In this document: positions 11,984 through 60,400 of the stretch, piece after piece | Position numbering within the stretch: the first letter of the stretch is position 1 | How the letters are laid out: the number at the start of each line of letters is the position of its first letter | Origin: Octopus vulgaris | Lineage: Eukaryota | Direction: 5' to 3' | Assembly: GCA_951406725.2 (NCBI GenBank) | Contig: OX597828.1 | Coordinates: 56,668,001-56,732,000 of the forward strand | Length of the DNA: 64,000 bases | Made by a program: the position numbers and the translations under genes | The notes under the pieces: generated by a model | The model's database searches: none | What the model saw: only the letters and a program-made list of their open reading frames with translations | What the model was told of the DNA's origin: nothing

Positions 11984-12018
11984 GTTTCTGACGAAGAGCT
12001 CCGCTCGAAACGTTAAAT
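11984..12018 (+). ncRNA. Minimal PLE-type hammerhead motif within a short repeat (~11.9-12.12 kb)
   Basis: guuu-CUGACGA-a-gagc(ucc)gcuc-GAAA-cg-UU-aaau; palindromic helix III (ACGU). Confidence 0.65.
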
Positions 12019-12261
12019 CCTCCTTCTTTCTTTCATTTACTGAGCGTCCAATAACAATAACACTATACTCGTTCCACGTCCTCGCATTGTTGTGTTTTCT
12101 CTTTGTTCATGTTTGGATTAACTATATATATATAAACATATATATATATATACATCTATGTTTATATATACACATGCATGCATATATATATATATACATA
12201 CATACACACACACACACACACACACACATATATATATATATATATATATATATATATATGC

Positions 12262-12520
12262 CCGTGGGCATATGGTGTAGTGTTTAAGAGCTCGGGCTAC
12301 TAACCCAAGATTCCGAGTTCGTTCCTAAGCAATGACCTGAATAATGACAATAAGAACCCCGAAAAATACTTTAGGAATGAGAAACCTGGTTCGAAATTTC
12401 TCCAAGACAACTGAGGAAGGCTGGAGGTTATATCAGCCGAAACGTTGATGAAGACAAATATCCGTCAAATGTAAATAATGTAATTAAGGTACATAATACC
12501 TCATCTCTTAAATATAGAAT
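12262..12520 (+). mobile_element. tRNA-headed SINE-like element with 3' hammerhead motif (12407-12450)
   Basis: A box TGGTGTAGTGT, B box GAGTTCGTTCC; CUGAGGA-a-ggcug(10 nt)cagcc-GAAA-cg-UU. Confidence 0.65.
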
Positions 12521-54490: not shown

Positions 54491-57400
54491 TACACAAGGA
54501 TCAGGTTAGTATGATTTTATTCAACATATGTTATCAAGCAAAAACAAGCATCTCATCTGTATTGAAAATATAAAATAGCTGCAAGTCTTATGCCACATAT
54601 ATTACATTTAACTGGCTCTGAACTGGTTACATTCATGTTTCATTTCAGCTACTGTGCCTCATTCTTATTACGTTGTAATTGTGTCACCTACTCTCATGAC
54701 ATCACAGTTTGTATATAAATCATGCGTGCAAGAAACACGAATTCGTGTTTAGACACATAGAGATGGAATATTCTTAAACATTTCTCTGGATATATTTAGG
54801 TACAATGAAATTTGAATGCACTGGAATGAAAAACACAAACATGCACACACATACACACACACAAATACACACACGAACACGCACATACATATATTTTTGC
54901 GTGTGTATGTGTGTGTGCATGTATATGTATCTTTGTATGCATATACATATGTGTGTGTGTGTGTGCGTGCATGAGGACCTGAGCGTTAAATATGAATGCA
55001 AAGAAAAAAATATGGAACGGAAAAAAAGAAAGCTAGAGTCAGATTTGAAGAAAAGGTTTAGCCTTGGGCTTAAACAGATGGGAGTAGTAACAATTCACGC
55101 GCTCGTATTTCATTGGAAGTTGAACATTGGAGGATCACGCCTTCACATCCTGAATCCGCCCACAAGACGAACGCATTCCTACATAAGACTTCAAATATTG
55201 TCCGATTTTTTCCTCTCAGCCACATTTCTCCCTTTTCCATTCTGTCAATCCACCTTAGCTCGACTCAACAAATATTCGTTGATGTCTCTAATTTTCCAGT
55301 AATCCTAGATACTGATAACAGAATGAAATACGCTTTTATCAGATGGTGCAACTATAAACTGATCTACAAAAACATATAAGAATGCGGATATATAGAAAGA
55401 AGCGGTTGCGTAGATGTATAGATTCGTAACGGTATGTATTCATGCATATATATATAGGAGCAGGAGTGGCTGTGTGGTAAGTAGCTTGCTAACCAACCAC
55501 ATGGTTCCGGGTTTAGTCCCACTGCGTGGCACCTTGGGCAAGTGCCTTCTGCTGTAGCCCCGGACCGAACAATGCCTTGGGAGTGGATTTGGAAGACGGA
55601 AACTGAAAGAAGCCTGTCGTATATATGTATATATATTTATATGTATGTGTGTGTTTGTGTGTCTGTGTTTGTTGCCCTAGCATTGCTTGACAACCGATGT
55701 TGGTGTGTTTACATCCCCGTCACTTAGCGGTTCGGCAAAAGATACCGATAGAATAAGTACTGGGCTTACAAAGAATAAGTCCCGGGGTCGATTTCGTCGA
55801 CTAATGGCGGTGCTCCAGCATGGCCGCAGTCAAATAACTGAAACAAGTAAAAGAGTGTGTGTGTATATATATATATATATATATATATATATATATATAT
55901 ATATATATATTATTGAAGTAGATAAATGAATTATCTTATTACGGATAATTCAAATGATAACCGATACCTGGGTAGCAAAAATCACAACAGAAAAAGCACG
56001 GTTGAAGTTACGACCATGGGGCATAAAATCCGAGCCTTAGTGCGGAAATTTGAAGTTTTATATATTAAGTGTAGGAAGAAATGGAGCTGAACGAAGATTT
56101 AACAAAATTCCTTTTTATTATTTTCTACATATGTTTCGAAGGCTGCAAAGTCCCTAATTCGGATTGAATAAGGGGTCCATTTTGCAGCCTTCTCTTCAGG
56201 AAAATCCAGGAAATTAATTCTCCAACAAAATGCACAGCAAGCTTTTCGACAAACGTATGTATGTATGCATGTGTGTATGTATTTGGAATTTACAGAAAAA
56301 AAAAAAAAGTGAAGACGAAGACCGGTTCGTAAACAAGAAACGGATGTATTAGTTTAACGCTCGGGAAGTGAAGAAGTCTTTTATGTTTCGAGGCTACGCT
56401 CTTCAACAGGAAAGGAACACAGAGGAAAAAAAACACTGCTTAGTGTCGAGTGATCAATCATGGCGACAGCCGGAAAGAGGTGGTCAGACAGGAAAACTAG
56501 GAAGAAGGGGAGATTGTAATCGGGCATGATTGAAAAACGGGAAGAAAAGAGAAAGAAAGGAGAGGAAGTAGAAAAAACGGGAGAGAGAAAGGAAAATAAA
56601 GACGCGAGGAGGAAAAATTCAAAAGGCGTGAGGAGAAAAATTACAATGAATGAGAGAAGCGAAAATATAAACAAGGAAAGAAAGAAGGAAGAAAGAGAGG
56701 GGAAATGAGAAGAAAGGGAGGTAGAGAGATGCAAATTAACAATGTGGGATATATGTGTGTGTGTATATATATATATACAGACATTTAAATAATATTTAAA
56801 ATAATATAAATTAATTAATTAATTTTATGTATTGGCTTATGTTTTTCATTGTTTCATTTGCCTAATAGTGGTTTTATCTCTAATTTAATATAATATAATA
56901 TAATATATTTATACTATAAAATTGGATTTAATTCTAAATCTGATTTTTCCCTGTAAGTTTGGATTTATTCCCTAATATTTTATTATATATATATATATAT
57001 ATATATATATATATATATATATGTACATATATATATTTAGAAATATGTATTTAAGCATGTATATATCTATATGTTTCTGTATGTGTACGAGGGAGAGACA
57101 TTTGTATATATAAACATGCACACACGCTCTCGTACATTTATTCATATATGTAGGTGTATATACATATGTATATACATATATGTAGGTCCCGGGTTGAGTC
57201 GGGGTTAACCACAGTAAATAAGGTACTCAATACATTGCAGAGTAAAGTAATATATTTTATAGAAGGAGCTTCTACAGGACTATAACTGTTTCATTCAAAT
57301 GAAATCTTCAGGAAGCTGGCTGTCAAAATAAGTTCTGGTATTTATGCATTTAGGCAGATTTAATGGAGTGGTGGTGCGGGACGTTTTTTGGGCAGGTTGG

Positions 57401-60400
57401 TATTTAGGAGATAAACAGGGCACTAGCTATTGTTCTTAGGGGATTGGTCAAAAGGCCAGAGTCAGTGAGAAAATAAAAAATAAAAAAAAATAATAATATA
57501 TATATATATATATTTGTGTGTATATATATATATATATATACATATATATATATTTATATACACACAAATATATCACGTGATCACGTGACTGACCAGGCCA
57601 TCAAATGTTGCTACACATCGGTGGTCACAATGCGTTCGCGTTGTTTTGGCCTTCGAATGACGCCACCCCGCTGGCTAAGCGAGCAGGCCAACAGAAGAAA
57701 GAGTGGGAGAAAGAGAGGTGAAAGAATACAGCAGGGATCACCCCCGCCTGCCGGAGCGTCGTGGAGCTTTTAGGTGTTTTCGCACAATAAGCCGCGATCC
57801 GCTGCCCTAACCACTGGCCCATTGCGCCTCCTATATATATATATATATATATATATATATACAATTGCATATATATATATATATATATATATACAATTGC
57901 AGTGTAGAAGGTGTTTGTAAGCCATTTAAGAAACACACAAAAGCCGTTCGATTCACTTCAACATTTGAGTTTAATTTGTCAAATATTTTCGTCGCTAAAA
58001 TCCGCGACCTGTTCACTGACAAAAATCCGTGCTGCATCTGAGAAAGTAACAGTTAGTTCGTCATATATATGTACGTATGTATGTGTGTATGTATGCATAC
58101 ATGTGTGTATGTATGTACGTATGCATGTACATACATACGCCTGTGTATGCATGTATGTTTGTACTCATGTGCTACGTATGTATGTGAGTGTCTAGGAGAA
58201 TGGGCAGACGTGTCTGTGAGAGTGGGTACATGTGTATGTGTATGTGAACGTATGTCCGTGTACTGGCATGTGTCCGTCCAAGTTGTGTACATGACTGTTA
58301 CTTTGTTGAAGGTTGTATAGATATTCACATATATGTTTGTATAGACGCACACACACATATATATAGGTGTGGGTGTGTGTTTGTTCCTCTCATCACCGTC
58401 TAACTGTGAATGGATACAACGCCTAAGTGCAACTGTACGTATCAAACAACGTTCGCTCATACGGTTATATATAAATATATAACTGCACATACGCATTGCA
58501 ACCTGTACGTAAGGACTACAAGTAAACGAGAGAGAGAGAGGGGGTGGTAATAGAATAGTCCTTCTGAATGGGATCTGGATGTTACTCCATTCGGACTATC
58601 GGTTGAGAGTAGGTTTGTATTCTTGTATACAAACAGCTTCTGTGACCTGTCTCAACATTGCATCGGTGGGATGTGTTGATAGGATGTTCAACTTAAGTTT
58701 CCCTAAGGATCCCTTGAAACTATAGTCCGTATGTAGTACTCGGGTCTTCGAGGGAGGATGACCTCCCTTTGCAAATAACACAAGCGCACTGAGATAGTGT
58801 CTAAAGTCCTTCTGGTGACGTTGATCGCCTGGGGCTAAAAGCATCAGTAACACCCCCACCCCACCCTAGTGGCTAGCCACATTCAGATGGCTAATACCCC
58901 TTACTTTGTTGAGCGGTTACTGTTTATATCTCGTTCAGAGATTTATTATTGTTTTCATACAGTTTTTCCACATCAGTGACGGTGGTTACTGTGAAAAACG
59001 TTATATATTATTTGCAAGGGGACTCCTTCATCGAAGACCGGTGCTTACCATGCGTTGACGAGAGGCAATTACCTTGAAACTATAATCCGTATGTAGTACT
59101 CGGGTCTTCGAGGGAGGATGACCTCCCTAAAAGCATCAGTAACACCCCCCCCAGTGGCTAGCCACATTCAGATGGCTAATACCCCTTACGTCGTTATATA
59201 TATATATATATATATATATATATATATATATATATATATATATATAATAATAATAATAAATATTAGGGAATAAATCCAAATTTACAAGGAAAAATCAGAT
59301 TTAGGACTGAATCCAATTTTATAGTAAAATATTATATAATATTAATTAGAGACAAAACCATTATTATGCAAATCAAACAAGGAAAGATTTAATCATATAC
59401 ATAAAAAATTTATATAAATTAAATAAAATTAAATTCGCCACTACATTTGTTTCGTGTCTCTTCTAATGACATTCATCAGGTGGTATTCAGATCTTCTATT
59501 CAATTTTAACTTAAAATTGAATAGAAGATCTGAATACCACCTGATGAATGTCATTAGAAGAGACACGAAACAAATGTAGTGGCGAATTTAATTTTATTTA
59601 ATTTATATAAATTTTTTATGTATATGATTAAATCTTTCCTTGTTTGATTTGCATAATAATGGTTTTGTCTCTAATTAATATTATATATATATATATATAT
59701 ATATATATATATATATATATATATATATATATATATATATACATATATGTATGAATATATATGTAAGAATATATATGTATGTGTATGTATGTATTTGTAC
59801 CTAAGTGTATATATATCTTTATTTATGTATCCACACAATACACAATAGATGTGCAATAAAAAATAACCATTACAAACTGTTTTGCAGTTTATACAGAAAA
59901 GAAAAAACGTTGATAAATAACCGCTGGGAAAATAAAACACCTGGATCTCGAATAAGTCTAATAGAATATATCAAATATCAAATACGCATGAACAGCAATA
60001 ACAACAAAAAAGTAACCACTAAATCAACAAGAACAACAACAACGACAACTACAATAATAATAATGATAATAATATTAAAAATAATAGTAATAACAATTAT
60101 TAACCATTAATTTTCATAATAAGTATAATAATAATAATAATAATAATAATAATAATAATAATAATAATAATAATAATAATAATTAATAATAATAATAATA
60201 ATAATAATAATAATAATAATAATAATAATAATAATAATAATAATAAGAAGAAGAAGAAGAAGAAGAAGAAGAAGAAGAAGAAGAAAAAGAAGAAGAAGAA
60301 AAAAAAGAAGAAGAATAGCACTATACTGGCGGCGTAGGACCAAGCTCTGGCCAGGAATATGAGGGTCAACTTGAGGAAAGTGGACGTGCCTCTGCTGTTC

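Follow-up and report, generated by a model that had tools for sequence, protein, structure and literature searches.

Penelope-like elements (PLEs) leave recognizable marks, namely partial tandems, inverted 5'-truncated copies, an optional tail of 30-40 bp and a preference for TA, as set out in the available sections of PMC8557442. For Naiads, one of the PLE groups, these sections report no canonical hammerhead ribozyme (HHR) and flag cases of 'HHR_core' and 'HHR_half_core'. Animal retrozymes without long terminal repeats (non-LTR retrozymes) are non-coding tandem units with one HHR each, for which mobilization by PLEs has been proposed (PMC7229834; 10.64898/2026.07.22.740005; accessible portions of both). 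Two permuted hammerheads, types SGC and CSG, have been validated in vitro (Eckert et al. 2023, PMC10085705). In the sections of that paper at hand, SGC is known only from metatranscriptomes and CSG from two metagenome sequences, and neither was found in the RefSeq-searched genomes of known organisms. Here, we analyzed 64,000 nucleotides of Octopus vulgaris (assembly GCA_951406725.2, contig OX597828.1, positions 56,668,001 to 56,732,000 of the forward strand; hereafter the window). Two of its repeat families, E781 (site 19634) and F50775 (site 50775), carry hammerhead blocks in a non-circular, pseudoknotted order that is predicted, with good probability, to fold as an active self-cleaving ribozyme. 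All features are collected in Table 1.

From 5' to 3', the layout starts with strand a, hairpin b, the 5' strand of helix II, strand d and the cleavage block S, which itself comprises the helix III 3' strand, U-H and the helix I 5' strand. A short linker, the GAAA block (G), strand j, the helix I 3' strand with CUGAnGA (C) and strand l follow. Both sites had been listed as HHRs in the initial annotation. The hammerhead blocks are indeed present, yet in the order S-G-C and not the C-G-S of type I, and a type I descriptor misses them. Read as type I, site 19634 has no helix II, and site 50775 (on TTGACGA) has a helix II of 1 bp and ignores the downstream CTGATGA of its family. CUGAnGA, GAAA and U-H are exact at both sites, for 50775 at the family level: the core of the window copy (50786-50780) is mutated, while CTGATGA occurs in 20 out of 21 other aligned copies and sits 3' of GAAA. 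Helices I, II and III abut the core, with covariation. The analysis in PMC10085705, as far as available, assumes at most 1-2 nt between CUGAnGA and stem II; at both sites no stem II strand follows within 1-2 nt. As the intact block C is lacking, the motif is not classed as type SGC, though it is predicted to work like it. Instead, the helix II 5' strand is displaced upstream, away from CUGAnGA, and two extra helices stand at the break. Judged by its block order, the layout is a type SGC hammerhead re-opened between A9 and G10.1 (hereafter split-SGC).

Several comparisons support this layout across unrelated letters. A spacing-based pattern matched 42 times in the genome (2.8 Gb in 227 contigs), against three times for the reversed control. 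The S-G-C layout was found in seven sequence groups of the genome, two pairs of which are related, and the pairings a-l, b, II, d-j, III and I are maintained with different letters per family. Own-family runs over the seven groups (first six positions) average 5.6 bp for helix I, 5.6 for the upstream helix II and 3.4 for helix III, while cross-family pairings as a control give 2.0, 1.9 and 1.1, respectively. Spacings vary little across the seven groups: 23-25 nt separate GAAA from the core, and H17 lies 14-18 nt before GAAA, which leaves a few nt of linker. A descriptor run over 848 kb of loci returned 16 distinct variants, in 14 of which the upstream helix II beats a direct one; five shuffles of the same 848 kb gave three matches, none with helix II and d-j. 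As a side observation, further families with the layout (L041, L127/L144, L154 and L275) lie in the flanks of unrelated loci.

Covariation was assessed in a plain MAFFT alignment of E781 with 15 older relatives, which are 15 of the 30 loci from the spacing-pattern search. The 15 loci left out were 5'-truncated or deleted, duplicates, members of other families (L127, L144) or of a different short interspersed element (SINE; L126, L143, L145), or a chance match (L139). In the alignment, 88% of the cells pair and 13 of 47 pairs change on both sides, which was reached in none of 500 shuffles; slid controls gave 3-8 double changes. Every one of the seven helices has at least one change on both sides. 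For d-j, 87% of the cells are paired and two of seven pairs changed on both sides.

The same layout recurs in Naiads. We judged 27 of the 54 Naiad 3' ends in the supplement of PMC8557442 by eye, on about 400-450 nt each and with record identity mostly inferred from file order. Seven of them carry the split layout (Obim, Ovul, Amil, 3_Chem, 2_Movir, Plae and Bfor, the latter with a helix I of only 2 bp) and represent ctenophore, cnidarian, acanthocephalan and octopus; Esco has it in part. Four others (2_Nbra, 3_Nbra, Hpol and Smim) are of type CSG, two are unclear and 13 show nothing. In this by-eye reading, nematode and spider ends (records before Naiad-3_Nbra, Naiad_Hcon, Naiad_Asuum and Naiad_Lpol) look like CSG with an interaction helix of 9-16 bp. 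Bivalve and hemichordate ends (before Naiad_Sglo, Naiad_Pmar and Naiad-2_Skow) share a different motif that is conserved and looks structured but lacks a hammerhead core; it may be another ribozyme or a signal. In the octopus genome, the octopus-type Naiad motif pattern has 293 matches and none in the controls, and the 3' ends linked to a reverse transcriptase (RT) match Naiad_Obim and Naiad_Ovul of PMC8557442 (supplement records) by eye. The split motif lies 3' of a Naiad RT in five of 30 RT loci (within 1.5 kb) and in three of five longer stretches; L275 also bears the motif 3' of a Naiad RT, with a changed GAAA block. No RT frame was found in 20 stretches upstream of Naiad-type motifs, and none of the 150 scored among 1041 candidates is an intact Naiad RT: only broken frames occur, the longest of 292-300 aa. 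Two long, weak Naiad RT matches (753 and 478 aa) were set aside as another PLE type with a C-terminal GIY-YIG.

A search with the Amil-type motif added 112 metagenome loci, a family unrelated in sequence, 70 of which have enough flank to be scored. For any given helix, 33-43 of these 70 loci have 5 bp or more, all six helices are present in complete copies, and 11 loci allow a direct helix II of 4 bp or more. Altogether, Naiads in at least five animal phyla and their non-coding derivatives would seem to carry active, non-circularly permuted hammerheads, including a seventh arrangement beyond the published six-permutation scheme, where a crossover into two stacked helices would take the place of the backbone link A9-G10.1; we hold this to be probable, if slightly less so than the prediction for the two window families.

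The fold proposed for split-SGC also has to be weighed against a simpler one, in which helix II forms from the bases right after CUGAnGA as in a plain type SGC ribozyme, the upstream strands serving as an off-switch that sequesters the core in long transcripts. Type SGC itself cleaves in vitro (PMC10085705, available sections), and F50775, the L041 group and one Naiad copy allow a direct helix II of 4-5 pairs, most of them wobbles. In E781, its older relatives, L154 and L127, however, direct pairing is just 1-2 bp, and the seven group representatives have 1, 2, 4, 4, 2, 1 and 5 bp. In the E781 alignment, the direct helix II (one register, with a 2-nt insert) is 54% paired, which is the level of shuffles (247 of 500), and in most metagenome copies it is 0. 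Moreover, strand j pairs with the upstream strand d and not with sequence past the core. We therefore regard a plain SGC fold as improbable.

A number of observations nevertheless weigh against split-SGC as an active fold of PLE origin. The direct helix II, at 4-5 G.U-rich pairs, is drawable in three of the seven representatives and ties with the upstream one in two of the 16 variants. Minimum-energy folding, which is blind to pseudoknots, mostly yields other pairings, and with a z of 0.39 the whole unit has no better fold than shuffled sequence. Relatedness can beat column shuffles without any structure in an alignment such as that of E781, where 15 of the 16 rows were picked by a pattern that fixes the core; the kinship of two pairs among the seven groups adds to this. 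About half of the metagenome copies are without one or more helices, and in 15 of the 27 Naiad ends the motif is absent or unclear in the roughly 400-450 nt shown. The initial annotation had suggested looking for a match to the pseudo long terminal repeats (pLTRs) of autonomous PLEs, and no convincing homology was found among 10 sampled elements. Finally, according to the available part of PMC11167929, a PLE inserted in vitro without any need for HHR cleavage, and the cut site did not coincide with the end of any RNA-seq read.

This last result is also what would favor a third view, namely that the fold is a conserved, non-catalytic 3' signal for binding of the PLE protein and its hammerhead core a relic: cleavage was dispensable for one PLE (PMC11167929, same part), the window copy of 50775 has a mutated core and other families here have altered ones. 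A mere relic is hard to reconcile with CUGAnGA, GAAA and U-H being exact in all seven groups and in the Naiad ends with the layout, while the helix letters have fully turned over, and we consider this view very unlikely.

If split-SGC folds as proposed, helices a-l and b would stack and hold A9 beside G10.1 in the manner of a four-way crossover. Helix d-j would be the stem I-II interaction helix, tying the far ends of helices I and II, and in E781 the RNA would cut itself after the C at 19694. Cutting at both sites of a tandem E781 transcript would release a 781-nt monomer, possibly circularized. The same pairings could instead form between two RNA molecules or two tandem units as a strand-swapped dimer, a form reported for minimal PLE hammerheads. 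A monomer has to make a U-turn on its way from helix III to d-j, the elements occur in tandem, and dimeric HHRs have been described for retrozymes (PMC7229834, available sections). Nonetheless, SGC ribozymes of the same connectivity cleaved during transcription (PMC10085705, sections at hand), a palindromic helix III is absent here, and linkers of 7-10 nt look long enough for one molecule to fold. A dimer thus seems as doubtful as the plain SGC fold. Assembled contigs of four runs guessed as RNA cover 25 of 29 bins, with the greatest depth over the ribozyme, a coverage that cannot show transcription, ends or circles. Over the ribozyme, at 19629-19709, these contigs accumulate and differ at many letters, and one of the variants restores a mismatched d-j pair; this variation implies many more relatives than were sampled.

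Table 1. Features of the window (positions count from its first letter)
Feature	Positions	Strand	Remarks
E781, young non-coding element	19548..20534	-	781-bp unit + 206-bp partial upstream copy; 3' end 19548 abuts (TA)n
Split-SGC permuted hammerhead of E781 (predicted)	19626..19772	-	closing helix a-l, hairpin b
Helix II 5' strand	19715-19711	-	part of the E781 ribozyme
GAAA	19677-19674	-	part of the E781 ribozyme
CUGAUGA	19649-19643	-	part of the E781 ribozyme
Predicted cut of E781	19694	-	after C
Second permuted hammerhead, in the E781 partial repeat (predicted)	20407..20534	-	without strand a; predicted cut after 20475
F50775, 5'-truncated copy	50518..50965	-	unit ~826 bp, tandems occur; 92-96% identity
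Split-SGC permuted hammerhead of F50775 (predicted)	50775..50891	-	predicted cut after 50827
Mini-element, minimal type I motif	11900..12125	+	core 11988; palindromic helix III
tRNA-headed (A/B-box) SINE-like element, minimal type I HHR	12261..12520	+	core 12411
3' end of an element, canonical type I HHR	20536..20800	-	core 20753
F37024 element, canonical type I HHR	36815..37160	-	core 37103; 12-bp helix II
Relative of the 11984 family	37186..37650	-	core 37313; U at core position 6
F38191 element, type I HHR	38105..38410	-	core 38235
F38911 fragment, type I HHR	38830..39000	-	swapped G3-C8 core; palindromic helix III
F39967 tandem retrozyme-like repeat, type I variant	39648..40130	+	core 39991; U3 core
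Head-to-head inverted pair of 20715-family ends	40165..40600		canonical type I HHR each; cores 40399 (-) and 40461 (+)
Tandem segmental array, four units of ~6.5 kb	35395..61092	+	multiplies the elements of 36.8-40.6 kb

The spread of these elements was examined across the genome. Candidates number 5987 for the 12407 family, 2503 for the 19634 family (E781) and 1895 for the 50775 family, next to 2682, 2334, 2142 and 1035 for the 37024, 39967, 38911 and 38191 families; these are first-look candidates, of which 40 were scored per family, and no exact copy numbers. The earlier view of multi-copy, non-coding, HHR-bearing elements is thereby upheld for all seven families searched genome-wide (1035-5987 candidates), and so is that of a non-autonomous, PLE-style insertion. 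The families examined have a fixed 3' end, variable 5' truncation, and partial tandem or inverted 5' copies. E781 has the same 3' end base in 25 of 25 loci, which mostly hold one or two full 781-bp units behind a partial unit of variable length, and its best full-length copies are 98-100% identical. F37024 has an inverted upstream copy in seven of 17 copies, and dimers, trimers and inverted 5' parts occur for F39967. Tandem units are seen with a variant type I core in F39967 and with a core other than type I in E781 and F50775. The proposed preference for (TA)n holds in part: the 3' end adjoins (TA)n in 22 of 22 other distinct copies of E781, 16 of 17 of F37024 and 10 of 12 of F38191, but in none of 29 copies of the 12407 family and two of 12 of F38911, most copies of which extend further 3'. 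The window holds a cluster of short elements that are non-coding and present in many copies, and proteins of Penelope-like retrotransposons likely spread them.

As for the mobilizing protein, the genome has 6136 GIY-YIG candidates, with many open frames of 781 aa. Intact open reading frames of 753-781 aa with RT and C-terminal GIY-YIG are present and their sampled 3' ends adjoin (TA)n; two sampled proteins are RTs with a C-terminal GIY-YIG. Since no intact Naiad RT was found among the 150 candidates scored, these intact (Neptune-type) PLEs are likely the current mobilizers. The motif may have derived from Naiad 3' ends, where it would take the role of the type I HHR of other PLEs, while the young E781 family is likely mobilized by another, non-Naiad, TA-targeting PLE. 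Such a protein would prime at the fixed 3' end and copy one to three units, giving the partial tandems. An observation on one intact 781-aa PLE family (3' ends L146, L148 and L161) is that a hammerhead-like variant core lies near the 3' end, which the canonical descriptor misses.

The remaining sites concern hammerheads of type I. At gathering thresholds, Rfam detected no hammerhead in the window, nor was there one among the 150 matches listed out of 392 by E-value; its miRNA matches were rejected as microsatellites and inverted repeats. A first, stricter hammerhead descriptor matched only two sites. The type I descriptor found six canonical motifs in 48,300 non-redundant bases and none in each of 60 block shuffles, with core starts at 11988 and 40461 on the plus strand and 20753, 37103, 38235 and 40399 on the minus strand. 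Of the HHRs originally listed, those at 11984, 20715/40457, 37024 and 38191 hence stand, with a canonical core and three helices in C-G-S order, as does 12407 at the family level, while 37282, 38911 and 39967 deviate from the canonical CUGAnGA with family-wide U6, G3-C8 and U3 cores, respectively. A short or palindromic helix III, as in the minimal HHRs of PLE pLTRs and retrozymes, is present at 11984, 12407, 20715/40457, 37024 and 38911; apart from the core variants, these sites differ from the known ones only in host and sequence. The notion that all motifs are minimal, palindromic and of type I was not borne out: two are permuted, three have altered cores and one is not an HHR. The latter is 25968, listed as a possible HHR and rejected as its core is not retained in its two relatives. 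For this site, 11984/37282 and 20715/40457, relatives were sought within 1.13 Mb of fetched loci; a candidate motif at 11600-11700 was dropped for having none in the same loci.

The window copy of 11984 has a canonical core that is retained in only four of 12 relatives. Site 37282 belongs to the same superfamily and has U at core position 6 in 19 of 20 relatives; its HHR (37186-37650) is probably inactive or a variant. The HHR of 38191 is canonical, but with a U.U at the base of helix II. In F38911, the G3-C8 swap is common to the whole family in the alignment of relatives. As the double change C3G/G8C partly restores hammerhead cleavage (PMC11167929, available part), this hammerhead may be active. 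Copies of F38911 often occur as inverted pairs 0.7-4 kb apart, which suggests the ends of a longer element. F39967 has the U3 core in 18 of 18 rows, a bulged helix I and tandem units of 352-360 bp. One check proposed at the outset was whether HHR bases are conserved above the remainder of each family. In the single family of sufficient age, mismatches were 7.5% in the core and 6.4% elsewhere, and such a lack of extra conservation is expected as dead copies decay neutrally.

The 12407 family combines SINE-like features with those of a PLE passenger. At the family level it has a canonical minimal HHR in C-G-S order, of which the window copy has lost helix I, and three of 30 copies have a fully intact HHR. 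Its A and B boxes are visible by eye in the alignment; the tRNA head gave no ARAGORN match in the window and no Rfam tRNA match on one good copy. Of 29 loci, 14 have an inverted 5' copy, which mostly lacks the final ~33 bp, an optional tail. By eye, the family resembles tRNA-derived SINEs and Sm-alpha of Schistosoma in that a body follows a tRNA-like head with A and B boxes, and Sm-alpha likewise carries an HHR. In contrast to tRNA-derived SINEs, it lacks a simple-repeat tail and shows PLE marks; the ~33-bp optional tail and the inverted 5' copies point to a PLE rather than a long interspersed element (LINE) as its partner. Octopus SINEs of the tRNA-Arg type are known from the older literature. 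Our literature search brought up no tRNA-SINE mobilized by a PLE.

These elements lie in a window that is AT-rich and dense in (TA)n and other simple repeats. The initial annotation counted about 10 unrelated elements up to 59700. Several distinct families are indeed present, yet most sites beyond 42 kb are copies within the ~6.5-kb array, because the four units of 35.4-61.1 kb repeat the same elements. The units are 97-100% identical; the third is the divergent one and holds the F50775 copy together with a transposase remnant at ~51.6-53.2 kb, presumably Tc1-like. A LINE at 32135-35107 on the minus strand, which we take to be CR1-like, has endonuclease and RT frames of 626 and 363 aa with one stop between them. 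Decayed LINE fragments, presumably L1/Tx1-like, lie at 26058-26570 and 27655-29213, and site 25968 adjoins one of them. Further observations by eye are a broken frame resembling a PIF1/Helitron helicase (24330-24720) and mariner-like transposase remnants (4920-5930 and 29600-30230); a long inverted repeat (23850-24074) has arms of ~82% identity.

HHR-bearing mini-elements with PLE-style insertion are biology already known in kind (PMC7229834; 10.64898/2026.07.22.740005; available portions). What is new here is the permuted, split hammerhead and its tie to Naiads, both well supported in sequence. Our literature search, incomplete in coverage and with supplements that could bear on novelty, turned up no paper that places permuted hammerheads in transposons or in animal genomes, and the main text of a 2026 octopus repeat annotation mentions neither ribozyme, hammerhead nor Naiad. 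If the reading is true, permuted hammerheads are a high-copy feature of animal chromosomes, beyond environmental sequences, and a topology is added that the defining paper excluded by assumption. It would also answer why Naiads seemed to be without the ribozyme of other PLE clades, the reported absence being partly a search artefact. Censuses of retrozymes and hammerheads based on type I-III descriptors would undercount, and the natural break between A9 and G10.1 would offer a new place for helix insertion in engineered ribozymes.

Compared to the systems described so far, split-SGC is closest to type SGC (PMC10085705, sections at hand), with which it shares the S-G-C order, a short linker between stems I and II, a fourth helix tying these stems and the exact core. 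It differs in that block S is preceded by both the interaction strand and the 5' strand of helix II, and in the two extra helices that flank the break. Unlike SGC and CSG in that paper, it resides on a chromosome of an animal, within repeat families whose candidates run into thousands. With Naiads (PMC8557442, available sections), the elements have in common the preference for (TA)n, partial tandems and decayed cephalopod copies, whereas E781 and F50775 are non-coding and share the layout but not the letters. Among the families of the window, F39967 fits the animal non-LTR retrozymes in size and layout (PMC7229834; 10.64898/2026.07.22.740005; same portions). Retrozymes are defined by a type I HHR and units of ~300 bp, however, while E781 (781 bp) and F50775 (~826 bp) are permuted and missed by type I descriptors.

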